Source: Candidatus Dojkabacteria bacterium (GTDB lineage: Bacteria; Patescibacteriota; Dojkabacteria; SC72). From it: a stretch of 64,000 nucleotides of DNA. The notes beneath the pieces are model-generated. The model searched no databases and was not told where the DNA came from. It was given only the letters and a program-made list of their open reading frames with translations. How positions within the stretch are numbered: the first letter of the stretch is position 1; each line of letters starts with the position of its first letter. Shown here one piece after another: positions 2,139 to 39,218 of this stretch. The translations under genes and the position numbers were made by a program. The stretch covers positions 684,820-748,819 of the forward strand of contig JBMNHB010000001.1 of the NCBI GenBank assembly GCA_050950145.1. The letters are read 5' to 3'.

Positions 2139-3977
2139 TTAAGACCCACCAACAGAGAGGATTTTGATAAAACCATCTAAACCATTATCTATATGCACCC
2201 TAGGAATCATAAACTTGCTAGAAGTAGAAATATCAATACTTCTTCCACAAGAGAAACCTGCTACATACCCACCACCCTGAACAATTGGAAATGCCCTATC
2301 ATCTGCAACACACCCTGGATATGCAATACCTGTAACACTCTTTCCTGTAATTGATTCTAAAACACTTTTACTCCCAACAATCTCTGCACTAAGCTCTTCT
2401 GTAGATACTTTTGTTAAATCTGGATGTGTTTTTGAATGTGATTCTATACCCATACCGTTATTCGCCATCTCTTTTAGTTGTTGATGGGCAATGTAAGACC
2501 TATTTGATATGACAAAAAATACTCCTGTTTGACCGTATTTCTTAAGAATGGGATATGCCTGTGTATAGTGGGATTTTAATCCATCATCAAATGTTATCAT
2601 AACTGTTTTCTGTTCTGGATTTTTACCAGACGAAAGTATGGTATTAAACTCCGGTATATTTACCGTCTTGTAGTTTTTCTTTGTCAGATATGCAACCTGT
2701 TTTTCAAATTCTAATGGACTCACATACAACCCTGCTACAAACTTATTCGTACTACTAGTCGTATCAATATGGTGATACATCAATATTGGTAATCGTATCC
2801 TACCACGAACAAAGGCTGACCTTGGATAATCATATGCTTCATCAAAATTACTATCTAACACTTCAGGAACAAGAGTCTTTTCTTCAATATATGGTGATAC
2901 AGTAAGAATGTTTTGATCTTTTACTTTAATACTTTTTAGCAAAAACTTAGGATTCTCTGGATTATAATCCAATGCCGATAGTATACCCTTTATCTCTAAA
3001 ACATCATTATCCTCACCTGCATTCTGCTTCTCTGTATACTCCTTAATATATGTCAGCTGTTTCCCTAACTCTGTTATATCAGCAATATCAATATTTTGAT
3101 CTGAAAGATTTTTAATTAAATATTCCGTAGAGTTAATTAGTTCTTCCAACAATACTAAATCCACATCAGAGTAAACTTGAGATTCAATACTACTGTTATC
3201 ATCATTCTGAATACTTACATCTGTCTTCCCAACCACTTCTACATCATTCTCACTCAGCAAATTAGAAACTTTATCCAAAACATCCTCTCCTTTACTATCA
3301 GTCAAAAAACTATTGATGCCAATATAACTGTTTAGAGCATCAATTCGTTGTAGATTATTAGATGGTTGTATATCTTTCTGCCTTAGCAAATCTATACACT
3401 CCTCATACTTATCCTCAACTAACAAAGATTTACATTCATTTACAGTATCTGGCATCTCCTTTAATTTCCTATTATTTAATTCCTCTAGCAACTCCTTCTG
3501 TAAATTATTCTCTATCATATTTAACTTAAACCTCTGCATTACACCTTTGTAGTAAAGAGAAACTATTTGATTTGTTAAAAGAATTGGTGTTTTACTAGTA
3601 GATAGTTTTGATATTGCATTCTTAAATGTATCCTCTTCACTTCCATCTTCTACAATAGTTTGTCCATATCTAAGAAGTTGTACCCTATTCTTCTGAGATA
3701 TATTAAACTTGTTGCTCTCTACCACATCCATATAGTTACTTGGAAATATCTCTAATTCTTTTGTGGAATCACTTTCATTTACCTTCTCCTCTATCTGTTT
3801 TGGGATGTAATTTGAATATTCTAACTTAGGTCTGTTACTGCCATATTGTAATTGATTCATATTAGGTATATGGCTTCTAAAAACAAAGAAAGAGATTATT
3901 AGGAGTAAAACAACTATGGGTAAAACGACTATCCCCTTTATATTCAACTTTCTACTACCTACATCTTCCTTTTGCAT
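2139..3977 (-). CDS. Membrane-anchored protein with a C-terminal polysaccharide deacetylase (NodB-like) domain
   Basis: N-terminal transmembrane segment (IVVLPIVVLLLIISFFVF). C-terminal region has MITFDDGLKSHYTQAYPILKKYGQTGVFFV, typical of the NodB/CE4 deacetylase fold. The central roughly 380 aa has no recognisable function. Confidence 0.6.
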   Translation of the reverse strand: MQKEDVGSRKLNIKGIVVLPIVVLLLIISFFVFRSHIPNMNQLQYGSNRPKLEYSNYIPKQIEEKVNESDSTKELEIFPSNYMDVVESNKFNISQKNRVQLLRYGQTIVEDGSEEDTFKNAISKLSTSKTPILLTNQIVSLYYKGVMQRFKLNMIENNLQKELLEELNNRKLKEMPDTVNECKSLLVEDKYEECIDLLRQKDIQPSNNLQRIDALNSYIGINSFLTDSKGEDVLDKVSNLLSENDVEVVGKTDVSIQNDDNSSIESQVYSDVDLVLLEELINSTEYLIKNLSDQNIDIADITELGKQLTYIKEYTEKQNAGEDNDVLEIKGILSALDYNPENPKFLLKSIKVKDQNILTVSPYIEEKTLVPEVLDSNFDEAYDYPRSAFVRGRIRLPILMYHHIDTTSSTNKFVAGLYVSPLEFEKQVAYLTKKNYKTVNIPEFNTILSSGKNPEQKTVMITFDDGLKSHYTQAYPILKKYGQTGVFFVISNRSYIAHQQLKEMANNGMGIESHSKTHPDLTKVSTEELSAEIVGSKSVLESITGKSVTGIAYPGCVADDRAFPIVQGGGYVAGFSCGRSIDISTSSKFMIPRVHIDNGLDGFIKILSVGGS

Positions 3978-4060
3978 ATGATAATTGTATTACGAATTTA
4001 GAAAAAAAAGAAGATGCAAGACCTAGGTCTGCCAAACAGATAGATATTGTAGATTTAAGC

Positions 4061-4089
4061 TTGACTAATCTATCTTTTTCGCTACAATA
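4061..4089 (+). promoter_or_regulatory. Putative sigma70-type promoter for the giant adhesin gene (TTGACT, 17-nt spacer, TACAAT)
   Basis: TTGACT at about 4061-4066 and TACAAT at about 4084-4089, roughly 155 nt upstream of the ATG at 4246. Confidence 0.4.
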
Positions 4090-4245
4090 TAATATATCAT
4101 GAGAATAAATTAAAACTGTCCTGTAAATGTTCAAAAAAATAGCACTTACAATACTCATTACTGTCTTAATTACACTATTCTCCCCTATTCTTAACTCTAA
4201 GATAAATTTCAATACACTTGCATATAATAGTATGGACATATAACT

Positions 4246-7200
4246 ATGATTAAAAAAACTGCTAAAAACTCACATATAAAGAAAATTCTCTTTATCCTAA
4301 CTACCCTTTTATTAGTTATTGGTTTTACAGCCTTTTTGGTTAAGGACAAAGGTTTTAAGACTCTCGCCTACTCTTCTGATCTATTTGTTACAAGATGGCA
4401 AACTAATGTTCCTGGAGCAACTGACCCAACTAAAGTCACTTTAAGATTTTTGAAAGTAGCTACAGATACCTATGAAGTCTCTTGGAATTGTGACGACAAT
4501 TACGAACTGTTTTACACTAGCTTAGCTACACATAATTATCCAACAGCAGGTACATATGATGTTTGTGTTAGATCTACTAGACCACTTCGTTTTTATGCTC
4601 CTGATTTAGCTGATGATGAAAAAGCTAAACTCCTAGAGATTAAACAATGGGGTACTATCCCATGGTCAAGTTTTATGTCTGCTTTCAAGGACATGAAAAA
4701 CATGCAACTAACTGCTACTGATACTCCTGATTTATCAAATGTTACAGATATGTCCTATGCTTTTAATGGCGCTACTGCTTTTACTGGCCATAGTTCAATG
4801 AATAACTGGAACACTAGCAATATTAAGAATATGTCGTACATGTTTTATGGCGCTACTTCATTTAATCAATACATTGGTAACTGGAACACAGGAAATGTCA
4901 CAAGTATGTTATACATGTTTAATGCGGCTACTAATTTCAATAATGGTGAAGCATCTGGTGCAAGTAATAACACCATGAACTGGAACACTCAAAATGTTCT
5001 AAATATGGCATATATGTTTTATGGCGCTAAAGCATTTAACCAAAAAATTGGTTCTTGGGATACTAATAATGTTACCAGTATTATTGGTATGTTCTTTAAT
5101 GCCAGCACATTTAATCAATATATTGGGAATTGGCAAACTGGGAAAGTTACCAGTATGACATACATGTTTAGTGGAGCTGTTGCATTTAATAATGGCGACG
5201 CTCCGGGTGCCAGCAGTAAGCCCTTAAATTGGGACACCTCCAAAGTTACTTTTATGAACAATATGTTTAGTAGTGCCACCTCATTCAATCAATATATTGG
5301 CAATTGGAATACAGGGAATGTTACAAGTATGACATTGATGTTTTACAATGCTAAAACATTTAATCAAGATATTGGCTCCTGGGACACTAGTAAGGTTAAG
5401 AATATGTCCAATGTATTTTATAATGCTACAGCATTTAATCAGTATATTGGTAATTGGCAAACTGGTGAAGTTACTAATATGGCAAGTATGTTTAATGGTG
5501 CAACCAATTTTAACAATGGTGATGTGCCAGGCGGAAGTAGCAAACCTCTAAACTGGAATACAGTCAATGTCACTGATATGTCGTTTATGTTTGTAGCAAA
5601 GAACTTTAATCAGCCAATTGGTCATTGGAATACAAAAAATGTAAATAATATGGCACATATGTTTAGAGGTGCTAGTCAATTCAATCAATATATTGGCAAT
5701 TGGAATACAGGGAATGTTAACAATATGGAAAAAATGTTTGAATCTGCCCCAGCCTTTAATAATGGTGCTCAGCCTGGTGACAGTAGTAAGCTTCTAAATT
5801 GGAACACTGCAAAAGTTACTAATATGTCATCTATGTTCAATGGCGCAACTACCTTTAATCAAAATATTAGCAATTTTAATATTCCTGTCCTCACTCAAGC
5901 AACTAATATGCTAAACAATTCTGGGATGAGTACACCTAAGTATGATGCTCTGTTAAACAGTTGGAGCCAGCAAACCGTTAAACCAAATGTGGCTTTGGGT
6001 GCTGTAGGTATCTACTACTGTACTGCCAAACCAGCTAGAGATATCCTAACAGGTGCCCCCAATAACTGGACTATTACAGATGGAGGACAAAATTGCCCTC
6101 CACAAAACCTCACTCTATCTAACACAGAGGTTAATGAAAATTCAACAGAGGTAGGAACTATTACAGCAACCGATGACAATCTCCCCATTATCTACACCCT
6201 TGTAGTTGGACAAGGCGATGAAGATAATTCAAAATTTGCACTTAATACTACTACTGGATATCTAACTTTCCTAGAAGCTCCAGATTATGAAAACCCTACA
6301 GACTTAGGTGACACACCTAATAACAACACCTACTCTATTAGAGTAAGAGCTACTGATAACACTGCACAATACTCTGAAACTATCTTCATCATCACAGTCA
6401 AAGACATTGATGATGTGCCACCCATCATTACCATTACTGCACCAACTAAGATGGCAAAAGGACCTATCACCGACACCACATTTACTGTAAGTGATCGTTT
6501 CTCAATCGCTTCTGTAGAAGTAGATACATCAAGTGTTGCTTCTGCTGACAGTATTGTGTGTACACCTCCTTTCCCATATGTAAATCCCGCACCTAGTCCA
6601 GAGAATCATATAACGCTAAACTGTACTATTAGGATTTTAAGCTCTGGTAAACTAGTACTGAAAGCTACCGATAACAATGGTAACAGCACTACAGCTACAG
6701 AAGAAGGATATGTCATTGACACACTAGGTCCTACATTTAGTGTAGCTAATGTTGATACAACAATAAATGGTTTACATAACCCAGTTGTCTCATTTGAAGC
6801 TCATGACCCAGTAGGTGTACAGAAATATGAAATCATCTTTATCCAAGACAACAACGGTCCTGGTATTTCTCCTAATCAAACCATAGAAACAGTCCAATAC
6901 ACTGGGGGTGTACAACAATTAACAATTAGCCTAGATCCTCATGAGGCTTCTCATGTAGTTGAAATAAAGGCATACGACAACACTGGTAATACAACATCAA
7001 GAAGAATTACATTTCCACCTGTGGTAACAATCAATGCACCAACCATAATTAGCAATCAACCAATTGACGATACCACAGTAACAATTACTTCACCTGTTAA
7101 TGGCAATCTAATTGACCATATTGTAATCTCTGGTTCTGCTTCTGCTGGGGTAACACTAGGTACATGTACAGATAAAAATAACAATACAACTGCACCATAC

Positions 7201-9396
7201 AACACCACTGTAACCTGTGAGATACATGGCATCCAAGCAACAGGTATGGTTGCCATTCAGGCTCAAGATATAACAAGTGGAGCTATTGGTAGTAACCTAC
7301 AGAAATACTTCTACGACACCTCTGCTCCAAATATCATTATCACTGCACCTACCAAAATTAAAAATGACAATATTACAGATGTCACAATTGCGGTTACTGA
7401 TAATATTGATCTCTTTTCTAATAGTGTAACAATAGACACATCTACAACAGCTGGATACAACAATCTAGTATGCAATACTGATGAAAATGACAAGTCAATA
7501 GTGAACTGTACCTTAACAATCACAAGCTCAGGTAATTTAGTCATTAAAGCTACAGACAAAGCTGGTAACTTTTCTACAGCTATAGAAAGTAATTTCATCA
7601 TTGATAGAACAGCACCAGTAGTAACAATAGATACTCCTGTAGCGGTCAATTACAACAATCAAGTCAACTACACCCTATCAGGAACATGTACAGCTGGTGA
7701 TAATGACTTGATTGTTACCATAGGTATACAACCATATGTTGCAATATGTGGTGTAGATGAAACATGGAGTTTACTCGTAGATCTCTCCTCATATACTGAT
7801 GGAGAGATTGTAGTATCTGTAAAACAAACAGATACCGTAGGAAACCAAACAACTGAAGGGGCAACATTACAAAAAGATACTATTCCTCTTGTAGTTATCA
7901 TTAACCAAACAGCAATACAGCATGACCCTACTAATACCCAACCTATTAGGTTTACTATAATCTTCTCTGAATCAATAAAGGAAGATACATTTACAAAGGA
8001 GGATATCAATGTAACTGGAAGTACTACTTACCAGAAAGGTAATATTACAAAGATAAGTGATATTGAGTATGAGTTTGAAATCACAAATCTAACAGATGGT
8101 GATACTGTAACCGTTGATATACCTGCAGGTGTATGTACAGATCTGGCTGGTAATAATAATCTCGTATCAACTTCTATAGACAACTCAGTTACATATGATG
8201 TCACCTCTCCAACAGTTACAGTAAACCAAGCTATTGATCAAGCAGACCCTACTAATATTAACTCTGCTAAATACACAATCATATTCTCAGAACCAATTAA
8301 GGAAGATACATTTACAAAAGATGATTTAGTAATATCTGGAAGTAATACTGCTACAGTATCACAATTATCAAAAGTAAATGACACAACATATACCGCAACT
8401 GTAGTTAATATGGTATCAGGAGAAACAATATCACTCACCCTACCAGCTGACAAAGTTCAAGACCTTGCTGGAAACAAAAATAGTATATCAACCAGTAATG
8501 ATAACTCTGTAACATATGACAATACTGCACCTACTGTAACTATCAATCAATCTTCAACTCAAGCAGACCCAACAAATATTAACTCTGTTAAATACACAGT
8601 TATCTTCTCAGAACCAATCAAAGAAGATTCATTTACTAATGAAGATATATTAATTTCAGGAAGTAGTACTGCTAAAGTAAAAAGTATTACAAAGATAAAT
8701 GATACAGAGTATGAAGTTGAAATTGAACAATTAACAGATGGTGATACAGTAATAGCAACAATTCCTGCTGATGTATTAACTGATTTAGCTGGAAACAAGA
8801 ATATTGCATCTACCTCTACTGATAGCAGTGTTACATATGCTGTAGAGGGAGAAGAAGAGGAAGATGATGAAACACCTCCTACCCAAGAACCAGAGACACC
8901 AACAACTCCATTAGATTCAAAACCAGCTGTAAAACCAAAGAATCCATTTGATAAATATATTAACCCTGTGATAGAACAAGAAGAGACTACTACTCCAACA
9001 AAAGAAGATTCATCAGATAGAACTAGCAAAACTACTCCACCTACTCAATCTAAGAGTTTAAGAATAAAGGTATATAATGAGTCTAGAGAACCTATCAAAG
9101 GTGTAACTGTTGAAATACATTCTGATGTTAGAACAGGAATTACTGATGAGCATGGAGAAGTATATTTTGAAAATCTAGAAACAGGTTTACATACCATGAT
9201 TATCTCGTATAATGGATATAGAGCGGAGAAAGAGATTAAGCTCATTAATAATGGAGAAGAAGAGATGGAGATCAATATAAAACTTGAAAAAGTAATAATA
9301 CCTAACTATGTTTACTGGTTAATTGCCTTGATTGTTTTGCTAACAATACTCTTGGGATACAATATATACAAAAGGAAACAGGTAGAGAAGAAATAA
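4246..9396 (+). CDS. Giant cell-surface adhesin-like protein (1716 aa). It has an N-terminal transmembrane or signal segment, about 10 DUF285-type repeats (NWNTxNVTxMxxMF / FNQxIGxW), a cadherin-like domain, multiple Ig-like domains with three tandem D-x-AGN repeats, an acidic Pro/Thr-rich linker, a carboxypeptidase-regulatory-like beta-sandwich and a C-terminal transmembrane anchor.
   Basis: Uninterrupted 5.1-kb ORF. The repeated motif FxGAxxFNQYIGNWNTGNVTSMxYMF matches the DUF285 (Mycoplasma/Listeria-type) repeat. PQNLTLSNTEVNENSTEVGTITATDDN...YSIRVRATDN is cadherin-like. TVDIPAGVCTDLAGNNN / LPADKVQDLAGNKN / IPADVLTDLAGNKN is the Big-type Ig motif. KVYNESREPIKGVTVEIHSD...GLHTMIISYNGY resembles CarboxypepD_reg. 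The C-terminus has YWLIALIVLLTILLGYNIYKRK. Confidence 0.85.
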   Translation: MIKKTAKNSHIKKILFILTTLLLVIGFTAFLVKDKGFKTLAYSSDLFVTRWQTNVPGATDPTKVTLRFLKVATDTYEVSWNCDDNYELFYTSLATHNYPTAGTYDVCVRSTRPLRFYAPDLADDEKAKLLEIKQWGTIPWSSFMSAFKDMKNMQLTATDTPDLSNVTDMSYAFNGATAFTGHSSMNNWNTSNIKNMSYMFYGATSFNQYIGNWNTGNVTSMLYMFNAATNFNNGEASGASNNTMNWNTQNVLNMAYMFYGAKAFNQKIGSWDTNNVTSIIGMFFNASTFNQYIGNWQTGKVTSMTYMFSGAVAFNNGDAPGASSKPLNWDTSKVTFMNNMFSSATSFNQYIGNWNTGNVTSMTLMFYNAKTFNQDIGSWDTSKVKNMSNVFYNATAFNQYIGNWQTGEVTNMASMFNGATNFNNGDVPGGSSKPLNWNTVNVTDMSFMFVAKNFNQPIGHWNTKNVNNMAHMFRGASQFNQYIGNWNTGNVNNMEKMFESAPAFNNGAQPGDSSKLLNWNTAKVTNMSSMFNGATTFNQNISNFNIPVLTQATNMLNNSGMSTPKYDALLNSWSQQTVKPNVALGAVGIYYCTAKPARDILTGAPNNWTITDGGQNCPPQNLTLSNTEVNENSTEVGTITATDDNLPIIYTLVVGQGDEDNSKFALNTTTGYLTFLEAPDYENPTDLGDTPNNNTYSIRVRATDNTAQYSETIFIITVKDIDDVPPIITITAPTKMAKGPITDTTFTVSDRFSIASVEVDTSSVASADSIVCTPPFPYVNPAPSPENHITLNCTIRILSSGKLVLKATDNNGNSTTATEEGYVIDTLGPTFSVANVDTTINGLHNPVVSFEAHDPVGVQKYEIIFIQDNNGPGISPNQTIETVQYTGGVQQLTISLDPHEASHVVEIKAYDNTGNTTSRRITFPPVVTINAPTIISNQPIDDTTVTITSPVNGNLIDHIVISGSASAGVTLGTCTDKNNNTTAPYNTTVTCEIHGIQATGMVAIQAQDITSGAIGSNLQKYFYDTSAPNIIITAPTKIKNDNITDVTIAVTDNIDLFSNSVTIDTSTTAGYNNLVCNTDENDKSIVNCTLTITSSGNLVIKATDKAGNFSTAIESNFIIDRTAPVVTIDTPVAVNYNNQVNYTLSGTCTAGDNDLIVTIGIQPYVAICGVDETWSLLVDLSSYTDGEIVVSVKQTDTVGNQTTEGATLQKDTIPLVVIINQTAIQHDPTNTQPIRFTIIFSESIKEDTFTKEDINVTGSTTYQKGNITKISDIEYEFEITNLTDGDTVTVDIPAGVCTDLAGNNNLVSTSIDNSVTYDVTSPTVTVNQAIDQADPTNINSAKYTIIFSEPIKEDTFTKDDLVISGSNTATVSQLSKVNDTTYTATVVNMVSGETISLTLPADKVQDLAGNKNSISTSNDNSVTYDNTAPTVTINQSSTQADPTNINSVKYTVIFSEPIKEDSFTNEDILISGSSTAKVKSITKINDTEYEVEIEQLTDGDTVIATIPADVLTDLAGNKNIASTSTDSSVTYAVEGEEEEDDETPPTQEPETPTTPLDSKPAVKPKNPFDKYINPVIEQEETTTPTKEDSSDRTSKTTPPTQSKSLRIKVYNESREPIKGVTVEIHSDVRTGITDEHGEVYFENLETGLHTMIISYNGYRAEKEIKLINNGEEEMEINIKLEKVIIPNYVYWLIALIVLLTILLGYNIYKRKQVEKK
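4700..5900. repeat. Intragenic array of about 10 degenerate DUF285 repeat units (about 35-45 aa each) within the adhesin gene
   Basis: Recurring nucleotide and peptide motif aat(t/c)ggaa(c/t)ac... / NWNTxNVxxMxxMFxxAxxFNQxIGxW seen directly in the translation. Confidence 0.6.
7890..8850. repeat. Three tandem repeats of about 315 bp (about 105 aa) encoding Ig-like (Big-type) domains inside the adhesin gene
   Basis: The block DPTN(T/I)...IIFSE(S/P)IKED(T/S)FT(K/N)(E/D)D...TDLAGN(N/K)N...SVTYD appears three times consecutively. The unit boundaries are approximate. Confidence 0.7.
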
Positions 9397-9411
9397 TAGT
9401 ATATTCAGTAA

Positions 9412-10203
9412 CTATCTATTAGCTATTAGCCTTCTTCTATTTTCATCTTGTCTTTCTTTTATAGCAGTATTAATCGCCTTCTTACCTCTTTTAGAAATAT
9501 TTTTAAACTCTTCAATTGTCATAACTTCACTAGGAATATTATCAATTATCTTCTTTACTTCATACCTACCACTCCTACCCATCTCACTAACTATTAGTCT
9601 CAAATACTCCTTTAAATCTTTTTCTTTCCATTTAGCTGAATATCCATATTCGAAAGATGCAATTATCGGTCTATCATCAACTTCAGTGATAAAAGATATA
9701 GATCTCAAAGCAAACTTGCACTCCTTTTCCGCATAACTTTGACTGATTCCAATACCATGATTTCTTTCATTCTCTTCTCTAAAAAATTTTCTACCAATAC
9801 TTGCTTTCCACTCTCCATAATGTTTACTAACCAATACCGGATTATTAAAAGACACTTTAAAGTTCTCTCTTTCCGCAACTATATTCGCACTCGTATACCA
9901 TGTATTAAACATTGTGCTACCTCTCTTTATAATTGGGAAAAAAGTTGTAACAGCACCTGTTTCTTCACCTAGAAACTCAGTATCATATATTTTGTTCTCC
10001 TCTCTCCCACGAACAGAGTACTCATTACTATTTAACATACTCTTTACAATCCCAGACTCTCGGATTGCATCAAAGTATTTAAACTCATCACTATCTACAT
10101 CAAGTTGAGAAGTATTTGAACTACCTCCTAAGTTTCCTACTGACTTTAGTTCAGAATCTAGTTTTGTATCAATTGCCTCTTGTGTAGGTATTTCGTCTGT
10201 CAT
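9412..10203 (-). CDS. Hypothetical protein (263 aa)
   Basis: Long ORF with a coding-like composition. No motif recognised. Confidence 0.5.
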   Translation of the reverse strand: MTDEIPTQEAIDTKLDSELKSVGNLGGSSNTSQLDVDSDEFKYFDAIRESGIVKSMLNSNEYSVRGREENKIYDTEFLGEETGAVTTFFPIIKRGSTMFNTWYTSANIVAERENFKVSFNNPVLVSKHYGEWKASIGRKFFREENERNHGIGISQSYAEKECKFALRSISFITEVDDRPIIASFEYGYSAKWKEKDLKEYLRLIVSEMGRSGRYEVKKIIDNIPSEVMTIEEFKNISKRGKKAINTAIKERQDENRRRLIANR

Positions 10204-10235
10204 TCTGTCTTGTACATAATCTTAACTAAAACATA

Positions 10236-10859
10236 TTAAACCAAATATCCCTTTAGTACAACCCTATCCATATCTGGCTTTCTTGCCTTTAAGATATATC
10301 TACCATACAAAACAAATATAGAATTAACCTTGTACCAATCTTTTTTAGGATACAGTTTCTCTAAATCATGAGCTACCTTAGTTGGATCTGTATTCTTAGT
10401 AAGACCATATGCCCTAGCAACCCTTAAAACATGTGTATCTACAGCAATTCCCTCATTAGCCCTATATCTTTCATTTAGAAAAACATTTGCAGTCTTGTAA
10501 CCTACCCCCGGTAGTTCAACAAGCTCATTAAGTGATTTAGGTGGTTGTCCATCATACTGTTTATCTAAAATCTTAGCCGTCTGCTTGATATTCCTAGATT
10601 TAGTTCTAAAATAGTTGATACCCCCCAGGGTATATTCTAAATCTTCTGTTTTTGCATTTGCTAATTCCTTCGCATTCGGATACTTCCTAAAAAGCTCTGG
10701 GGTAACCTTGTTCACCTGAATATCTGTTGTCTGAGCAGAGAGGATAACAGCAACTAAAAATTGAAAATCATTCTTCCAATTTGCAAGCTCTGTAGTGGCC
10801 TCTGGAAAAAGTTTTTCTACTTCTGATAGTAACTTGATTGCTAATTCTTTCTTTTTCAT
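10236..10859 (-). CDS. Endonuclease III-like HhH-GPD DNA glycosylase that lacks the C-terminal 4Fe-4S cysteine cluster
   Basis: LVAVILSAQTTD, LVELPGVGYKTANVFL and VDTHVLRVARAYGL are hallmark Nth/HhH-GPD motifs. The C-terminus (…LKARKPDMDRVVLKGYLV) has no Cys-X6-C-X2-C-X5-C motif. Confidence 0.8.
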   Translation of the reverse strand: MKKKELAIKLLSEVEKLFPEATTELANWKNDFQFLVAVILSAQTTDIQVNKVTPELFRKYPNAKELANAKTEDLEYTLGGINYFRTKSRNIKQTAKILDKQYDGQPPKSLNELVELPGVGYKTANVFLNERYRANEGIAVDTHVLRVARAYGLTKNTDPTKVAHDLEKLYPKKDWYKVNSIFVLYGRYILKARKPDMDRVVLKGYLV

Positions 10860-11869
10860 TAACTCAAGGCTCTTTTTAATTTGTTTACAAACCCTCTTCC
10901 ATAATAATATTCAAATACTTTCATAATATTGGGAACAATAGTTAATATTCTCCCAAACTCCTCTCTTACCTCTTTAGTTGAGAATTTAATATTAACACAA
11001 CTATCTGCTACTTGTTTAGATAATTCCAATCCACTTGAATACATTACATCCTTCACATTCTCTTTAATAGCGCCGTTGTAGACATTATACAATTTTCTAT
11101 CATAACTAGCTTTAGGATACATATTTTCAACAATCTCCTTAAAACCGATATCGTACTTCAGACCTTGCCTGATATCTCCCATATCTCCGTATGTACTCTT
11201 GATGATACTCTCAATATCATTCCAGATATCATCCCTATCTCGCCAACCATCATTTTCTTTAGTAACAACCTGATGCCAACCAGAACCTACAACTTCTGTG
11301 CACATATCGTACACCCTACTACATCTTTCTTGTACATCTCTCTTCTCATACTGATCTACCTCCTTCTCCCTAATATTCTTCCATTCACTCTCTTCAGACT
11401 TCAATTGAATAACACACCTGTCCAATCCCAATGTAGATATCATCAAAGAATCAAAATCCAATGCTCTATTAATATATCCTACCACTTCTTCCTCATCCCA
11501 ATCATCTTGCAAGGAGAGCCAATACCCTATCGTTAAAGAATTACTAAACGGACCTCTATCAAGAACTAACATTGTATCCCTATACTTTCTATCACTCAGA
11601 TACACATCCATAAACTCCAATCTATTCAATGCAAAAAGTGCCATTCTTACATCCAAACTATCTATTCCATCTAATCCTGGATCCGAGAAACCACCTTTCA
11701 AAAAAGAGCGAATAATTGCACCTGTTGGAGTTGCATATATTGGAAAAGAAGAGAATGTAAGATTTACCCCATCTGCTTCAAGCTCTCTAACCACTCTAGA
11801 AGTTGCATCACCCTTTCCAAGTTGATCTCCTCCCTCAATGTATACTGACCCATAGCTTTCAATCTCCAC
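10859..11869 (-). CDS. Hypothetical protein with an N-terminal nucleoside/nucleotide-kinase-like fold carrying a degenerate P-loop. The stop overlaps the start of the downstream glycosylase gene by 1 nt.
   Basis: N-terminus VYIEGGDQLGKGDATSRV resembles a dTMP-kinase/dNK P-loop but has G in place of S/T after the K. A DR motif (VLDRGPFS) follows. The C-terminal 200 aa are unassigned. Confidence 0.45.
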   Translation of the reverse strand: MEIESYGSVYIEGGDQLGKGDATSRVVRELEADGVNLTFSSFPIYATPTGAIIRSFLKGGFSDPGLDGIDSLDVRMALFALNRLEFMDVYLSDRKYRDTMLVLDRGPFSNSLTIGYWLSLQDDWDEEEVVGYINRALDFDSLMISTLGLDRCVIQLKSEESEWKNIREKEVDQYEKRDVQERCSRVYDMCTEVVGSGWHQVVTKENDGWRDRDDIWNDIESIIKSTYGDMGDIRQGLKYDIGFKEIVENMYPKASYDRKLYNVYNGAIKENVKDVMYSSGLELSKQVADSCVNIKFSTKEVREEFGRILTIVPNIMKVFEYYYGRGFVNKLKRALS

Positions 11870-12987: not shown

Positions 12988-13107
12988 GTCCTGGCAATAA
13001 CCTATCTTCCCAAAACCAAAGGTTTAAGTATTTTCGGCGTTAGAGTGTTTTACTTCTGAGTTCGGGATGGAGTCAGGTAGTTCCACTCTACTACAATCGC
13101 CAGGCAA
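12988..13107 (-). rRNA. rrf: 5S ribosomal RNA
   Basis: The reverse complement reads GCCTGGCGATTGTAGTAGAGTGGAACTACCTGACTCCATCCCGAACTCAGAAGTAAAACACTCTAACGCCGAAAATACTT..., a canonical 5S (compare E. coli TGCCTGGCGGC...CCGAACTCAGAAGTGAAACG). Confidence 0.85.
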
Positions 13108-13542
13108 AAAGGATCTATTGTATAAATTCCTTTTGCCTGACCTCTTCTTACGAAGAGCTCAGGACTTAATTCTAAAGAGCAAGAGTGTACATTGTACACT
13201 CAAAACCGAACAGAAAGTAATAGAAAATCAAAGAAGCTTTTGGTCGATTAGTACTCCTCAGCTAAGTATATCACTATACTCACACTTAGAGCCTATCAAC
13301 GTGGTAGTCTTCCACGAACCTTCCGTGTAGTCAAGCTACACAAGTATATTTAATCTTGGGAGTGGCTTCGCACTTATATGCCTTCAGTGCTTATCCGATA
13401 ATAACTTAGCTACCCAGCTATGCTCTTGGTAGAACAGCTGGTAGACCAGAGGTTACCACACCCCGATCCTTTCGTACTAGGGGTCGAATCCCTCAAATAT
13501 ACAACGCCTATACCGGATAGAGACCGACCTGGCTTACGCCGG

Positions 13543-13573
<31 letters not shown>

Positions 13574-13606
13574 ACGAACAGTCCAACCCTTGGGATCTTA
13601 TCCAAT

Positions 13607-13638
<32 letters not shown>

Positions 13639-14207
13639 GAACCTTGCCGTCAATATGAACTATCGGGCAAGACTAGCCTGTTATCCCCGGGGTAACTTAT
13701 CTTCGTTAAGCAATGGCGCTTCCACGCACAACCAAAGGATCACTTAAACCTACTTTCGTAACTGATCGGGATGTCTCCCTCACAGTAAAGCCTCCTTATG
13801 CTTATGCACTCTTCACCCGATTTCCATCCGGGTTGAGGAGACCTTAGTGCGCTTGCGGTACTCTTTAGCAAGCAACCGCCCCAGTCAAACTTCCCACCAT
13901 GCACTGTCTAGAATCCAGATAATGGATACTGTTAGAAATAAAATACCAAAAGAGTGGTATTACACTGTTGACTCCACAATTCCTGACGAAACTGCTTCAT
14001 AGTCTCCCACATATTCTATACATCCGAGACCTTATCTCAATGCAAAGCTGAAGTAAAGCTCCACGGGGTCTTTTTGTCCTGGTATAGGTAGGCCGCATCT
14101 TCACAGCCATTTCAATTTCACCGAGCACGTTGTCGAGACAGAGGAAAAATCGTTACACCTTTCATGCAAGTCACTAATTAAGTGACAAGGTATTACGCTA
14201 CCTTAGG

Positions 14208-14523
14208 CATTTCTGTTACTTCCATCTAGTGTTCATTAAACTAGAAGACCTATTTTTAGGCGGATACACCTTCGTGTATCTCTCTACATCACTGTAGAGG
14301 TCGGACTATATCTTCACAATATTATATTGTGTCTAGCATGTAGCCTCTGAGGATTTCCAATTTCTTGGATCTTTCCTGCTGATTGTCCATAAATACAAGA
14401 TTGTTACTCTTTGGTACTTGTATCGTTTAGGATGTTCCAGCATATAGCTAGATTTTAAAACGGCCCTATATCTTTAGATAGCAAACCGAGATTAGCAAAT
14501 ATCTCAGTAGATATATATCTACC
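14208..14523 (-). mobile_element. Group I intron 2 (ORF-less, about 316 nt) inserted after U1923 of 23S rRNA. It lies 6 nt downstream of intron 1.
   Basis: It follows the mini-exon AACGGT (plus strand 14524-14529) and ends ...GAAATG immediately before CCTAAGGTAGCG. It has a second set of P (CTAGCTATATGCTGGAAC), Q (AATCAGCAGGAAAG), R (TCAGAGGCTACA) and S (AAGATATAGTCCGACC) elements. A candidate guide sequence GCCGTT pairs with AACGGT. Confidence 0.75.
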
Positions 14524-14529
14524 ACCGTT

Positions 14530-14829
14530 CACTTGTGTTACCCTCTAACAACATTTGTTAGATTCGTGTATATATTTCTACATACATCTGTATGTCGCCA
14601 TACAGGTCGGACTATATCATCTCCTTATCAGGAGTTTGGCGTATAGTCTCTGAGGATTTCCAATTTCTTGGATCTTTCCTGCTGATTATCTGCATTCTTA
14701 CATTTTAACTACTAGAGATTACAAATTTCTTACAATTTGAATATCATCTAATGAGTAGTAAGAAATACTCAGACTTTCCAGCATATAGCCAAATTTTACA
14801 ACTACAATTCCTAGCTTTCACTAGGTCTA
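14530..14829 (-). mobile_element. Group I intron 1 (ORF-less, about 300 nt) inserted after U1917 of 23S rRNA (E. coli numbering, helix 69)
   Basis: The upstream exon ends ...GGCGGCTGTAACTAT and the intron ends in G just before the mini-exon AACGGT. Conserved group I cores are present: a P-like element AATTTGGCTATATGCTGGAAAG, a Q-like element AATCAGCAGG, R (TCAGAGACTATA) and S (GATGATATAGTCCGACC). A candidate internal guide sequence GTAGTT pairs with the exon end AACTAT. Confidence 0.75.
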
Positions 14830-16188
14830 ATAGTTACAGCCGCCATTGACCAGGGCTTCGACTTTTTGCTTCGCAACCACTAGGGCACCGAAGTGCACCC
14901 AGCAGAGAGCTAACAAATCATCTTAACCTTCTGGCATTGGGCAGGTGTCAGCACTTATACATCCTCTTGCGAGTTTGCAAGCGCCTGTAGTTTTGGTAAC
15001 TAGTCGTTCTTCCCTATTCTGTGCCACTTCCATCACCACAAATTAAAAACTTATGATGGGAAGTCCCCCTTCTTGCGAACTTACGGGGTCAATTTGCCGA
15101 ATTCCTTAACAACGCATCACTCGTACGCCTTAGTGCATTTACACTTGTCCACCAGTGTCGGATTGCAGTACGGTTACAAACATTTTTTTCAACTACCGAA
15201 GTAGTTAAAGATAGAAGTTTTTCCTGGAGAATTAAATACAACAGATCGGCTTCCCGAAGGTCACCTTTGTATTACAACTCGCGTCCATCCACCGAAGTGG
15301 AAACACTCTTCCGGATTTTCCTAAAAGAGCTCTCTTGTTGCTTACACCCCAAACCGATAAGGGGCCTGCATCTTCAATCCTCACACTCCATTTCAAATGT
15401 TAGTAGTACAGGAATATTAACCTGTTAGCCATCGCCTACGCTTTTCAGCCTCAACTTAGGACCGACTAACCCATGGTTGACTGACATAGCCATGGAAACC
15501 TTAGACATTCAGCGAGCAGGGTTTTCACCTGCTTTACGTTACTCATCCCAGCATTCTCACTTCTATACGCTCCAGCAGCTCCTTACGGGCCACCTTCACA
15601 GCTAATTACCGACTGCTAAGTCGGTCATGTATAGAACGCTCCCCTACCACCCATACATATCGTAGTATGTATAAATTCGCAGCTTCGGAATTTACCTTCA
15701 GCCCCGTTAACTTTAAGTGCAAAATCTCTTGATTAGTAAGCTTTTACGCATTTTTTAAAGGATGGCTGCCTCTAAGCCAACCTCCTAACTGTCTGAGAAA
15801 TTTCACTTCCTTTCCCACTAAGGTAAAATTTGGGGTCCTTATCTGACGATCTGGGCTGTTTCCCTCTCGAGCACAGGAACTTAGATCCCTGACTCTAACT
15901 GCTGTAATGTACAATACGGTATTCGGAGTTTAACTGGAATGGGTACCCTTTCGGGCCCCAAATCCAATCAGTGCTCTACCCCCATATCTTAAATTACAAC
16001 GCTAGCCCTAAAGCTATTTCGGGGAGAACCAGCTATTACCAGGTTCGTTTGGCATGTTACCGCTAGCCACAAGTCATCTCATAATTTTGTAACATTAAAA
16101 AGTTCGGGCCTCCGTCATGATTTCTCATGATTTCACCCTGCTCATGGCTGGATCACCTGGTTTCGGGTCTCGTGCATGTGACTCAAAT

Positions 16189-16219
<31 letters not shown>

Positions 16220-16337
16220 CCCCAATAAACATGGTTAACCTTGCCACACACAACGAACTCACTGGGTCATTCTTCAATAGGCACGCCGCTACCGGATATA
16301 CCGGCTACGACTGTTTGTAAGCATATGGTTTCAGTTG

Positions 16338-16379
<42 letters not shown>

Positions 16380-17128
16380 TCTATACTAATTCACTATCGG
16401 TCACAAAAGATATTTAGCCTTGCCGAGTGGTATCGGCTGATTCCTACAAGATCTCACGTGTCTCGTAGTACTTAAGAAATTAAAAAGGAGATTCCACATT
16501 TTTATATACGAGGCTGTCACTCTCTATGGCATATCTTTCCAGATATATTCTACTAAAATGGAATTTTGTAACTCCTTGAAGTGCTTGCTACCACTTCTAT
16601 TAACTCTTACAACGCTTACACCGCACGAGTAGCAACCTACGAGTTCAAGTCTTCACGCTCCGCAACGCGGATTGCAATTTCTATCCCTCTTACACGGTAT
16701 AAGTTTAGGCTCTTCCCTTTTCGCTCGCCACTACTAGGGGAATAAACATATGTTCTCTTTTCCTGCAGGTACTGAGAGGTTTCACTTCCCTGCGTTGTCT
16801 CCTATACAGCTATGTATTCACTGCAAGGTAACTAGGCATAACCCCAGTTGGATTACTCCATTCGGAAATCTTCGGATCAAAGCTCGTTTGACAGCTACCC
16901 AAAGCTTATCGCAATCTACTACGTCCTTCATCGATCTTTTGTGCCAAGGCATTCGCCATACGCCCTTAATTTGCTTAATTGAAATTACTTTCTATTCAGT
17001 TTTAAATGTGCAACTACGGATACTGTAATTCTTACTGTAAAACATTACGACCTACCTCAACAGTAAAAATATATACAGATATCCTGATTCAGAAATTAAA
17101 GATTTCTCTTCTTTTTCTGATAACAATA

Positions 17129-17202
17129 TGGACCTGAGGAGAGTCGAACTCCTGACCTCTTCATTGCAAATGAAGCGTTCTAGCCAACTGAACTACAGGC
17201 CC
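17129..17202 (-). tRNA. tRNA-Ala (anticodon TGC) in the 16S-23S spacer
   Basis: Reverse complement GGGCCTGTAGTTCAGTTGGCTAGAACGCTTCATTTGCAATGAAGAGGTCAGGAGTTCGACTCTCCTCAGGTCCA. It forms a cloverleaf with anticodon loop TTTGCAA and a G3-U70 pair. Confidence 0.9.
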
Positions 17203-17213
17203 AGAACATATTC

Positions 17214-17290
17214 TGGTGGGCGCACCAAGAATCGAACTTGGGACCTCAGTCTTATCAGGACTGCGCTCTAGCCAGCTGAGCTATGCGCCC
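17214..17290 (-). tRNA. tRNA-Ile (anticodon GAT) in the 16S-23S spacer, with encoded CCA
   Basis: Reverse complement GGGCGCATAGCTCAGCTGGCTAGAGCGCAGTCCTGATAAGACTGAGGTCCCAAGTTCGATTCTTGGTGCGCCCACCA. Confidence 0.9.
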
Positions 17291-17373
17291 CTCTTCGGTA
17301 CATATATATTTTTTAATTAAAGAACTTAGCCTTAAAAGCTAAAAAGTGACAGGAAGATCTGGTTACTCCTTAG

Positions 17374-18920
<1,547 letters not shown>

Positions 18921-19306
18921 AAAATAGTACTTAACTTCATACTGTAAAACAATATGGCCAACTAGTACAAATGTTGGACTTTTAAACGTATGACTAAATG
19001 AATTGTGTGAACCCAATCACACAGAAAGTCAATATTTTAGACTTCCTGTCACTCTTCAACTTTTAAGGTGCTAACAACACATCATTGTATAACACTAAGT
19101 AATTTCTTCTCAGGGGGTTCGTTAGAGAAGTTCTCTAAGAGGATTCCTGTTTCTCCATACACATTTTTAACACATATCCCAAACTCGTGAGCAGAAGTAT
19201 AGCATATCAATTTTAAATATGCAAGCTTTTTCATATAGACCTGGTCTGCGTACTTTCCCTTATCACTACAACCCAAAGAGATTGTTTTTGAGACTTTTTA
19301 ATCTTA

Positions 19307-22542: not shown

Positions 22543-24366
22543 TTAACTACTTCTCATAGAATACATCTTTTCTAATTCACTTACCCTTGTAGCATCATTA
22601 GCACTCTTATCTCTATCCCACTCTATCAACCTAGGAAACCTAAGTGAAAGACCTCCTCCAATATCCTCTTCTCCTAATCTCCTTGTAATCTCATCGGCTT
22701 CAACAGTAAAAACAACCTCTGGATAGACCCAAACATCAGGTTTCAGATTCTCAGGACAGAGAACATCCTGTGGTTGCTCTTCCTCTATCTTAGACTCAAA
22801 CTGTTCTTTAATACTCTTCAATTGCTCATCACTAAAACCTGTCCCCACCTTACAAATTGCCTCATAACCATCTGTCTTCTCGTTATACAATGCTCCTAAA
22901 ACTGCCCCTACTCCAAAATCAGATCTCCTTCCCGAACCAAAATAGTATCCAACACATACAAGATCAACAGTATCCACAAGTGTATTCATCATACTCTTCT
23001 TTAACTTAATCCAATCATAGTTCCTTACACCTGGTAAATATCCTCCTGTACTCATTTTTACAATAACTCCTTCATATCCTTTCTCTACGTTCTCATTAAA
23101 AGTCTTCATTAGAGTATCTAAATCTTCTACTTTTTTAGTCTTACATCTCTCTAAACTACCACTCATTTCAACCTTCTCAAGAATATCTATCCTCTCTTCG
23201 GTATCACTATCTATTAAATCTTTTCCATTTATATACAAAACATCAAAAACCATTGCTCTAACAGGAATATCTTTAGATCTATCACTAACCCCATACTTCC
23301 TTCTTCTCTGCATAGTTTCTTGAAATGGAAGAAATTTTCCATCTTTGAATCCCAATACCTCAGAATCAAGGATAAAGGAGGTATCTGTAATACTTCTTGC
23401 TGATTCAACAACCTCTGGAAACATCTCTGTTACATCTTCTAAATTCCTAGTAAAAAGCTTAATCTCTGTATCACTACTAGCCATATCAAAGAGGTTAACT
23501 TCTTTCTTTGATATATATTTCTTCCAAATATATTCCCTATGCTCAAAATCTTCTACCTTATATTTATGAATCTGACATCTTAGACCATCAAATTTAGGTT
23601 GCACTAATGCAGGAACACCTGTTCTGTCAAATGTTTCTTCAAATGCACCTACCCTTTCTACTAATCTAGGTAATACTGGTATCCCTGGTTGAATATCTAC
23701 TGCTTTAAGACTATCAACAGCACCAAAACTATCTTTTCCTGCAATCTGAGAGTAAATATATCCAATATCTGCAGATACACCGTATGCTCTATCTAACTCA
23801 TCTCTTACACTTTTATCACCAGCAATTATGAAGGAGAAAACATCTAGTAATGTCTTAAAACTAATACCAAACCTTAACTGTCCACATATTATCCTTACAA
23901 AATATTTAGCTTCCAAAGGAGAAAGCTGTTGTAATGTATCTAAAACAATACTGTTTTTCTTATCCATAGCACCACTTCCCTGTATATTAACTATACCCCA
24001 AAGGGTATCATATATTTCTTCAAGTTCTTTACCAAAAGAGTTAAATTTGGCTTTTTCTGAGAACAGTTTAACCGTATCTCCAATATCTCCCAAACTATCC
24101 CTTTCAGCTTTAATATCAACATCTAAACCTTTCATCTTTGAATAGTTCTCAAGTAGAGAGAGTAAGCTTTTTTCAGAATAGTTAAATTCACTATTTAGAA
24201 AGAATGGTGCAACTCTACCAAGAACCATGTATGAAAGAATCTCTCCTTCTTCCTTAGTAAGTTTTTTGTAAAAATCAGCTAGTATTTGTGTAACTTCATT
24301 CCTAGAGCTTCTTTGCTCTATCTGTTCAAATATGTTTGCTACTTCGTGGAACTTCATACTATCCAA
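22543..24366 (-). CDS. ATP-dependent DNA ligase
   Basis: Motif I KFDGLRCQIHK (KxDG adenylation lysine). The length and downstream OB-fold region fit the archaeal/eukaryotic-type ATP ligase architecture. Confidence 0.85.
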   Translation of the reverse strand: MDSMKFHEVANIFEQIEQRSSRNEVTQILADFYKKLTKEEGEILSYMVLGRVAPFFLNSEFNYSEKSLLSLLENYSKMKGLDVDIKAERDSLGDIGDTVKLFSEKAKFNSFGKELEEIYDTLWGIVNIQGSGAMDKKNSIVLDTLQQLSPLEAKYFVRIICGQLRFGISFKTLLDVFSFIIAGDKSVRDELDRAYGVSADIGYIYSQIAGKDSFGAVDSLKAVDIQPGIPVLPRLVERVGAFEETFDRTGVPALVQPKFDGLRCQIHKYKVEDFEHREYIWKKYISKKEVNLFDMASSDTEIKLFTRNLEDVTEMFPEVVESARSITDTSFILDSEVLGFKDGKFLPFQETMQRRRKYGVSDRSKDIPVRAMVFDVLYINGKDLIDSDTEERIDILEKVEMSGSLERCKTKKVEDLDTLMKTFNENVEKGYEGVIVKMSTGGYLPGVRNYDWIKLKKSMMNTLVDTVDLVCVGYYFGSGRRSDFGVGAVLGALYNEKTDGYEAICKVGTGFSDEQLKSIKEQFESKIEEEQPQDVLCPENLKPDVWVYPEVVFTVEADEITRRLGEEDIGGGLSLRFPRLIEWDRDKSANDATRVSELEKMYSMRSS

Positions 24367-39141: not shown

Positions 39142-39218
39142 TGGTGGGAATAGGTGGACTCGAACCACCGACTTCGGCTTTATAAGAACCGTGCTCTGAC
39201 CTCCTGAGCTATATTCCC
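39142..39218 (-). tRNA. tRNA-Ile with anticodon TAT (UAU)
   Basis: Reverse complement GGGAATATAGCTCAGGAGGTCAGAGCACGGTTCTTATAAAGCCGAAGTCGGTGGTTCGAGTCCACCTATTCCCACCA. All four stems are perfect (one G-U pair) and the anticodon loop is CTTATAA. Confidence 0.75.

Follow-up and report, generated by a model that had tools for sequence, protein, structure and literature searches.

The surface-protein gene

The largest open reading frame (ORF) in the window analysed here, a 64,000-nucleotide stretch of a Candidatus Dojkabacteria bacterium genome (contig JBMNHB010000001.1, positions 684,820 to 748,819), encodes a surface protein of 1716 residues at window positions 4246-9396 of the forward strand, the strand on which all features of the gene described below also lie. 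The gene is complete, with an ATG start, 1716 codons and a stop codon at 9394-9396, and the runner-up ORF in the window is 1039 aa long. A 5.1-kb frame that is uninterrupted in DNA of 33-38% G+C, and whose product strongly matches curated profiles, is not a chance occurrence; 4246-9396 is a real, intact surface-protein gene. The original prediction of a giant mosaic surface protein of 1716 aa, encoded by the largest gene of the window, was borne out by this single ATG-started frame and by domain searches and two confident structure models that agree on its architecture.

NCBI lists an identical protein, encoded on a contig of 748,838 nt, as “BspA family leucine-rich repeat surface protein” of a Candidatus Dojkabacteria bacterium (MGI6484665.1). 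The gene therefore already has a public annotation and is of an ordinary adhesin kind; what is new here is its mosaicism, a head swap on a 100%-identical stalk, a relic ORF and a split allele. The nearest named proteins are those of Candidatus Dojkabacteria, and the flanking polysaccharide deacetylase matches Dojkabacteria/WS6 genomes in GTDB. This deacetylase-anchored genome scan did not show the surface-protein locus any further, with one candidate (L007) stopping at a contig edge and another (L008) not being syntenic. No paralogues of the gene were found elsewhere in the 64-kb window. Recent horizontal acquisition was considered and is unsupported, the G+C content of the gene (0.33-0.38) being that of the window.

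A PARCEL-type solenoid head

The N-terminal domain of the head is a beta-sandwich (4384-4650, residues 47-135) that has six or more strands, a Cys82/Cys107 pair and a block confidence of 86-97 in predicted local distance difference test (pLDDT) units in the AlphaFold model. Homologues of this domain occur in 99 of 120 homologues and also precede PARCEL arrays in Bacteroidota homologues. No Pfam family was found for it, with PKD_4 appearing at E = 0.095 only.

The sandwich is followed by a PARCEL/DUF285 solenoid array (4651-5931, residues 136-562) that scores 384 bits against Pfam DUF285 (PF03382, cut-off 25) and, in nine stretches, 101 bits against the NCBIfam PARCEL repeat TIGR02167 (cut-off 30). 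About ten DUF285 repeats had been claimed for it; the count is 14 regular units, or ~16 when the degenerate first and last units are added. Regular units have the consensus NWxTxNVTxMxxMFxxAxxFNQxIG and are 25 or 33 residues long, with four of the 14 being 33-residue units that carry an NNG-x-PG-xSSKPL insert. Column entropy is ~0-0.4 bits at W, T, V, M, F, A, F and N and 2.2-2.7 bits at positions 5, 11, 12, 15, 19 and 23, giving the amphipathic pattern of PARCEL proteins, in which a constant hydrophobic core alternates with variable positions. The dyad symmetry of coding DNA from which PARCEL takes its name was not detected by a crude 7-mer test that differs from the MEME procedure of the original paper: codon shuffles gave 19.9 +/- 5.8 reverse-complement 7-mer pairs lying no more than 90 nt apart, and the actual sequence gave 15. 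The PARCEL-coding DNA holds just four weak inverted repeats. The array ends in a C-terminal cap (5932-6099, residues 563-618) with two helices, at model residues 528-539 and 560-567, and a Cys592/Cys617 pair; its Y, C, W, C and P columns are invariant in the family alignment.

The head was modelled with AlphaFold over residues 36-625 from a 29-sequence family alignment, and the model is confident (mean pLDDT 90, predicted template modelling score 0.81). It has the form of a solenoid with one short strand per 25-residue unit and caps at both ends. Strong fold matches lie among predicted viral structures, where PARCEL matches were found in phages and giant viruses, including Aeromonas phage D3 (E = 5e-26) and an Aureococcus virus (TM-score 0.61-0.68). 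Phage proteins annotated as LRR_5, again as predicted structures, match more weakly (E = 6e-12, TM-score 0.33). Among solved structures, a sequence search of Protein Data Bank (PDB) chains with the whole protein gave no match at E <= 0.01, and a PDB fold search with the head gave no significant match. The best hit of the latter was the leucine-rich repeat (LRR) ectodomain of Toll5A (E = 0.011, TM-score 0.17), and the other full-length PDB matches among the top hits, all of them non-significant, were the LRR proteins BRL3, Roco, RPP1 and SspH1. Pfam LRR_5 (PF13306) has no match in the protein at E <= 1, and the family NF045896 of Mbov_0838-type and Listeria-type PARCEL lipoproteins reaches 258 bits against a cut-off of 500. 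We therefore class the modelled head with PARCEL-type solenoids and call it LRR-like.

A stalk of nine beta-sandwich domains

A second model covers residues 614-1715 and is numbered from the invariant columns of a 27-sequence family alignment; its protein numbering is approximate. With a mean pLDDT of 81, it contains nine beta-sandwich domains up to ~residue 1530 and matches PDB strings of immunoglobulin (Ig), cadherin and macroglobulin domains. The at least six Ig-like domains expected from the original prediction are thus a true but conservative figure, given nine sandwiches and a CarboxypepD_reg domain. A word-indexed search with the Ig1-Ig5 stalk gave nine matches, mostly fragments, and added little.

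The first stalk domain (6100-6411, residues 619-722), a beta-sandwich in the model, had been called cadherin-like. Pfam Cadherin (PF00028) matches residues 627-718 at 24.7 bits, under its cut-off of 28.8, and here the domain annotation, in which DUF285, Big_12 and CarboxypepD_reg all exceed their cut-offs, falls short. The segment is nonetheless 47% identical (E = 7e-18) to residues 672-756 of the homologue P0135, whose residues 680-773 pass Pfam Cadherin at 43.3 bits. Six acidic columns of the family alignment (E17, D66, E68, D90, D106 and D108) are invariant in the 27 sequences; they include the E in VNEN and those in D-Y-E, A-T-D and D-I-D-D, and on our own reading they may represent the calcium-site motifs of cadherins. 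With the caveat of the missed cut-off, the name cadherin-like is accepted for this domain.

Five Ig-like beta-sandwich domains follow (6412-7884, residues 723-1213; model block pLDDT ~76-94). Most of the five have a Cys pair, and domains 1 and 4 are 41% identical. The stalk then continues with three tandem Big_12 domains of 107 aa each (7885-8205, 8206-8526 and 8527-8847), which score 35.7 bits against PF19078 (cut-off 27) in three stretches and appear as three 107-aa sandwiches in the model. These had been taken for near-identical 105-aa (315-bp) copies that would be hotspots of recombination or assembly collapse, with a doubtful copy number. The actual period is 321 nt. Protein identity between copies is 48-59% and DNA identity 61-68%, rising to 70-74% where only ungapped stretches are compared, and no exact common string exceeds 20 nt; the array goes unreported by Tandem Repeats Finder. 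At only ~65% DNA identity, the copies are too divergent to be substrates for assembly collapse or efficient homologous recombination in cis. Moreover, 11 variant sequences from the protein's 90% cluster align gap-free over the region and keep all three copies. Collapse or copy-number error in the Big_12 array is not a concern.

Export, anchoring and topology

The N-terminus (4246-4368, residues 1-41) has the hydropathy and family consensus of a signal peptide or N-terminal anchor, with a K-rich n-region, a 19-residue hydrophobic core at about residues 13-32 and then a conserved F-x-T-L-A-Y motif. No lipobox is present in the protein, the first Cys being residue 82. A regular-expression search of the whole protein for LPXTG-type motifs returned only IPWSS at residue 138 and nothing before the C-terminal hydrophobic segment. 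Both a sortase and a lipoprotein anchor were rejected for want of these motifs.

Three features that the original prediction had placed at the C-terminal end are present. Beyond the Big_12 domains lies an acidic Pro/Thr/Glu-rich linker (8848-9048, residues 1535-1601), presumed to span the wall; 13 T, 12 P and 11 E are found among the 69 residues 1535-1603, and the model is disordered at ~1533-1598, with pLDDT below 50. Next to the membrane is a CarboxypepD_reg beta-sandwich (9049-9297, residues 1602-1684; PF13620, 38.4 bits against a cut-off of 32.3), modelled as a seven-strand sandwich at ~1601-1679 with a block pLDDT of 58-74. The protein ends in a transmembrane helix and basic tail (9298-9393), reading ...KVIIPNYVYW-TM-KRKQVEKK, where TM stands for the transmembrane segment (in full, PNYVYW-LIALIVLLTILLGYNIY-KRKQVEKK). 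Hydropathy places this segment at ~residues 1688-1712, before the K/R-rich tail, and the stalk model has a terminal helix at ~1687-1714. The N-terminal hydrophobic segment and C-terminal helix together agree with the membrane targeting typical of PARCEL proteins.

The C-terminal end is not specific to this family. Whereas a word-indexed search for the 117-aa C-terminal cassette yielded no more than four small fragments, an exhaustive search of cluster representatives found 1023 that match the last 117 residues at E <= 1e-3. Many of these matches are single and lie at the extreme C-terminus of proteins of widely differing length, which end in a hydrophobic helix and basic tail. Of 39 sampled proteins ending with the cassette, 36 contain CarboxypepD_reg, and the other domains of the sample are of extracellular types, namely fn3, beta-helix, LysM, the glycoside hydrolase families GH5 and GH16, SASA esterase and polysaccharide deacetylase. 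CarboxypepD_reg and the transmembrane tail therefore form a widely reused surface-anchoring cassette. Since the cassette ends many extracellular-type proteins, a head-out, tail-in topology is supported. The six within-domain Cys pairs of the protein are also consistent with an extracytoplasmic location.

Mosaic structure and tandem paralogues

In a related strain (locus L003, JGI 3300028568), the syntenic site, after the S1 and deacetylase genes, holds three tandem surface-protein genes. Their products are a 1034-aa cadherin/Ig protein without PARCEL repeats, P0005 (1585 aa) and P0002 (2324 aa), and all three have the anchor cassette at their C-termini. When the window gene was compared with this locus in 150-nt chunks, its 5' end (4246-4845) matched P0002 best, at 73-87% identity, and its PARCEL array had no nucleotide-level match. 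The segment 6046-8145 matched P0005 best, mostly at 92-99% with two chunks at 85-86%, and 8446-9396 again matched P0002, at 89-97%. Two junction zones can accordingly be delimited. The 5' zone (5833-6046) separates an array without nucleotide counterpart in L003 or in a further haplotype, L001, from downstream sequence that is 92-98% identical to P0005. The 3' zone (8146-8446) lies inside the Big_12 array, where the best match passes from P0005 (95-99%) to P0002 (89-97%) with a one-unit register shift of the array.

The haplotype L001 carries a different head on the same stalk. Its head is of the P0005 type (98-100% identical to L003), and from ~7644 of the window through the end of its 5.4-kb contig it is 100% identical to the window; its middle part, at 86-98% to each putative parent, equals neither of them. 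Per-domain identities show mosaicism across the family as well, for example in P0004, P0006 and P0008, whose N-domains are 88-90% identical to that of the window gene but whose Ig2 domains are only 36-38% identical. Across the family, the number of PARCEL units ranges from ~5 to 21 and that of Big_12 copies from 0 to 5, and among close strains the stalk is far better conserved than the head.

From these sharp switches in identity, the gene is seen to be patched together from segments that match two tandem paralogues of a related strain. It is shaped by recombination between alleles and tandem paralogues, one junction lying where the PARCEL array ends and the other within the Big_12 array. Variation in the gene is by segment exchange, not point hypermutation. 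No Pfam reverse transcriptase was found among 24 larger ORFs (19 of the 20 non-target window ORFs of >= 300 aa and five neighbours of 87-273 aa), a search that left out small ORFs and the template repeats of diversity-generating retroelements.

A relic of deleted upstream paralogues

Immediately upstream, a 38-aa ORF (MFKKIALTILITVLITLFSPILNSKINFNTLAYNSMDI*) occupies 4127-4243 of the forward strand and ends 2 nt before the ATG of the main gene. It fuses the first codons of the 1034-aa gene with codons 8-41 of the P0005 gene. Window 4104-4146 is 93% identical to L003 6840-6882, the start of the 1034-aa gene, and window 4132-4231 is 99% identical to L003 10024-10123, the start of the P0005 gene; the junction is a 15-nt string, CAAAAAAATAGCACT, common to both parents. 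Every sister contig shares this junction with the window, and in four of these contigs ENA gene callers called the ORF as a gene. The ORF is the scar left by a deletion of the upstream paralogues.

A sigma-70-like promoter candidate (TTGACT-16-TACAAT, 4061-4088, 10/12 matches) lies upstream of both the relic ORF and the main gene, in sequence that is also conserved ahead of the first gene in the L003 cluster. Promoter-like sites upstream are no more numerous than in shuffled sequence, leaving the candidate weak, and the promoter and terminator scans as a whole were uninformative. On the opposite strand, a 94-aa ORF (3955-4239) overlaps the promoter region and the relic ORF. It has no Pfam match and is mostly uncalled in sister contigs, its equivalent in L017 being an 80-aa minus-strand ORF, and it is probably not a gene.

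A split allele in the commonest sister haplotype

The gene is intact in the window; in the common sister haplotype it lacks five nucleotides at 5262-5266 (TATGT or, the alignment being ambiguous, equally ATGTT). The deletion creates AAT-TAG and splits the gene into ORFs of 339 and 1355 aa. Each of the nine near-identical sister loci that were examined has it. These loci stem from nine sample accessions, but L002 and L016, both contigs of 11,640 nt whose gene coordinates coincide, may be a single assembly entered under two accessions. The 1355-aa product is encoded by at least 21 contigs; eight were retrieved, from eight sample accessions, and L002 is the ninth locus. The intact allele is seen in two records, that of the window itself and one ENA assembly. 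The split-allele loci differ from one another by 0-4 positions in 5.4 kb, which points to one clonal haplotype and to a recent event rather than long decay.

The 1355-aa product begins inside a PARCEL unit. Because it lacks a signal peptide, the split allele should give no anchored fibril. Rescue by programmed +1 frameshifting was rejected on a reading of the site, AAT-TAG offering no slippery codon.

Between the intact and split haplotypes, the ratio of nonsynonymous to synonymous divergence (dN/dS) is 0.17, which argues for purifying selection on the coding differences and for a gene that is constrained and not decaying. Synonymous divergence varies from 0 to 0.20 by segment. From ~7500 to 11500, the window has zero nucleotide differences from the split haplotype of L002 over ~4 kb, and the flanks differ by 2-5%. 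This difference-free tract takes in three genes downstream as well as the 3' half of the surface-protein gene, and suggests recent recombination or a sweep.

Relation to known surface proteins

The protein belongs among PARCEL-headed bacterial surface proteins with an MSCRAMM-like layout. It resembles the PARCEL/DUF285 proteins described by Roske et al. 2010 (PMC2996958), which are surface lipoproteins in Mollicutes, in its tandem 25-residue amphipathic repeats (both profiles score far above threshold), its variable repeat number, its membrane-targeting sequences and the evidence of intragenomic shuffling. It differs from the lipoprotein members of Mollicutes and Listeria in having no lipobox, from PARCEL proteins generally in the undetected dyad symmetry of its coding DNA, and also in the placement of its array between a dedicated N-terminal sandwich and a C-cap, on a nine-domain stalk.

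[quoted passage not shown] The two proteins share a DUF285 head, an Ig-like run and a C-terminal anchoring region, a likeness of DUF285 and layout; the L. lactis protein has Big_3 domains where the Dojkabacteria protein has Big_12 and unclassified Ig domains, its anchor is of a different type, and its MucBP domain has no counterpart here.

The surface proteins typified by Tannerella forsythia BspA and the LRR_5 family share with this protein a solenoid head, predicted here to be LRR-like, and the name under which NCBI lists it, and LRR_5-annotated phage proteins match the head model moderately. The differences are the missing Pfam LRR_5 match and the lack of a significant match of the head to any solved LRR structure, as detailed above.

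Gram-positive adhesins of the MSCRAMM type consist of a signal peptide, a ligand-binding head, a B-repeat stalk, a Pro/Thr-rich wall-spanning segment, and an LPXTG motif with transmembrane segment and basic tail. The order of head, Ig-like stalk, Pro/Thr-rich linker, hydrophobic helix and basic tail is the same in the Dojkabacteria protein, which differs in having no LPXTG or other sortase motif, in the CarboxypepD_reg domain between linker and transmembrane helix, and in a head that is a PARCEL solenoid instead of a DEv-IgG fold.

Neighbourhood and remainder of the window

Downstream, a 263-aa protein gene on the reverse strand (9412-10203) converges on the surface-protein gene, leaving 15 nt between the two. 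Its product, which is conserved in L001 as well as in every sister contig, matches no Pfam family and lacks a transmembrane segment. L003 contains an AbiEii toxin-like gene and an AAA_14/DUF4143 ATPase gene between S1 and the deacetylase (L003 2234-4912), and a helix-turn-helix and Gp49 (HigB-like) pair downstream of the surface-protein cluster (L003 21736-22369), all of which are absent from the window; the whole neighbourhood of the cluster is a variable region. A 1714-nt contig binned as 'uncultured Candidatus Saccharibacteria' (L010, CAYPAR010000088.1) is 100% identical to the C-terminus of the Dojkabacteria deacetylase and is probably mis-binned.

The window also holds a complete rRNA operon on the reverse strand (12989-18921), comprising 5S (12989-13104), 23S (13228-16980, 3753 nt) and 16S (17374-18921) genes, with tRNA-Ala and tRNA-Ile in the spacer (17128-17290). 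[quoted passage not shown] The second (window 14530-14833 in the comparison with near-identical strains) is polymorphic: it is ORF-less in the window, contains an insert of ~470 nt with a 165-aa LAGLIDADG homing-endonuclease gene in L012 (15365-15835) and L018 (10558-11028), and is wholly absent in L011 (15231/15232). Besides the spacer tRNA-Ile(GAT), a tRNA-Ile with a TAT anticodon lies at 39142-39218 on the reverse strand.

Adjacent type IV pilus-type genes for a T2SSE ATPase (PilB-like) and a T2SSF platform protein (PilC-like) are found at 60299-62991 on the forward strand. Apart from type IV pili, no attachment machinery is known to have been linked by experiment to episymbiosis in other CPR bacteria (PMC9894109, PMC12206443). 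On the reverse strand, an 831-aa HerA/DUF87 and type IV secretion system coupling-protein-like ATPase (39263-41758) and, ~860 nt from it, a 778-aa ORF without Pfam match (42617-44953) may be part of a Patescibacteria type IV secretion system. An ATP-dependent DNA ligase of the archaeal/eukaryotic type, with all three domains, is encoded at 22543-24366, also on the reverse strand.

Proposed function and alternatives

We favour, with a probability of roughly 60%, the reading of the protein as a fibrillar adhesin, exported by Sec and anchored by its tail, whose head is LRR-like and whose locus evolves by module recombination. The signal peptide would be cut near TLA/Y, the C-terminal helix would sit in the cytoplasmic membrane with its basic tail inside, and the Pro/Thr linker would span the wall. 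The Ig rod would then hold the PARCEL head tens of nanometres off the cell, calcium possibly stiffening the cadherin-like junction, so that variable, solvent-exposed positions of the solenoid could bind a ligand on another cell or surface, be it a host, another bacterium, a polymer or abiotic material. At the level of the locus, on this reading, heads, stalk segments and anchors are exchanged as modules, whole copies are deleted, with the relic ORF left behind, and one widespread haplotype has inactivated the gene through the 5-nt deletion. The label 'adhesin' is drawn from architecture and from the one experimental precedent in L. lactis. Host-cell attachment is plausible for a CPR bacterium.

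Several observations weigh against this reading. The frameshift in the commonest sister haplotype should abolish the anchored full-length protein, and the protein is therefore not indispensable, at least in those settings. No solved PARCEL structure that could validate the head model was found by PDB sequence and fold search, the cadherin-like domain misses its Pfam cut-off, and the head-swapped haplotype L001 is a single short-read contig. Literature searches gave nothing specific on a Dojkabacteria host or an episymbiotic lifestyle.

Binding of a substrate or matrix, as opposed to another cell, seems unlikely but has concrete points in its favour. A tether holding cells on particles of polysaccharide, on biofilm matrix or on abiotic surfaces would fit an anchor cassette also carried by glycoside hydrolases, esterases and deacetylases. 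In every syntenic contig, moreover, a polysaccharide deacetylase with a membrane anchor is the divergent neighbour of the gene. The L. lactis DUF285 protein, too, affects adhesion to bare polystyrene as well as to mucin. The carbohydrate-binding-module folds matched by the N-terminal sandwich are very weak hits, all with E > 1 and hence non-significant, and neither Pfam nor NCBIfam recognises a carbohydrate-binding or catalytic domain in the protein. LRR-like solenoids, moreover, are more often protein binders.

A purely structural role, as a coat, spacer or S-layer-like fibril without specific ligand, would be in keeping with the long Ig-domain rod, the wall-spanning linker, the conserved anchor and a stalk far more conserved than the head. 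It is nevertheless improbable, since in a coat one would expect neither a frameshift to be tolerated by the dominant haplotype nor wholesale replacement of the head and variation in head length from 5 to 21 units. There is similarly little to recommend the view that the gene is a dispensable accessory heading for loss and the window copy a minority survivor without current role. The contrast between at least 21 split-allele contigs and two intact records speaks for it, as do the neighbouring paralogues that are already deleted, with the relic remaining. The dN/dS of 0.17 bespeaks purifying selection on the haplotype differences, however, both split halves are otherwise undamaged in nine near-identical loci, and the family is large and maintained across Dojkabacteria. 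That metagenome assembly created the mosaic pattern, by joining chimeric contigs over shared repeats, is hardly credible: all comparison loci are indeed short-read metagenome contigs, and L001 is a Logan contig that begins inside the PARCEL array, but the three-gene order of L003 is reproduced in the separately deposited L004 and partly in L006, the middle of L001 is unlike a two-parent chimera, and the relic junction recurs in the window and all sister contigs.

The favoured reading of an adhesin evolving by module recombination can be extended, in a tentative and on balance doubtful step, to a cassette-exchange system for partner specificity, in which a fixed stalk-anchor chassis receives alternative heads and the frameshift is a kept 'off' state. 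The chassis site would be fixed between the deacetylase and the 263-aa gene, and heads would come from tandem or incoming paralogues, either as PARCEL arrays of 5-21 units or as non-PARCEL heads such as that of the 1034-aa neighbour. The 'off' allele might be kept by frequency-dependent selection, for example as an escape from phage or host defence recognising the fibril.

Implications for Dojkabacteria

These results do not overturn current understanding, the architecture being that expected of a bacterial adhesin. They identify the gene as a candidate surface attachment fibril that is open to test, with a high-confidence model of a PARCEL head for which sequence and fold searches found no related solved structure. 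We know of no cultured Dojkabacteria. Apart from type IV pili in Saccharibacteria (PMC9894109, PMC12206443), the recognition and attachment of partner cells by CPR bacteria are largely unexplained. The intact, head-swapped, frameshifted and three-gene forms of the locus provide a natural allele set that could be correlated with co-occurring organisms across metagenomes. If cassette exchange does operate here, the head type of a strain would predict the host or surface used by a Dojkabacteria population.

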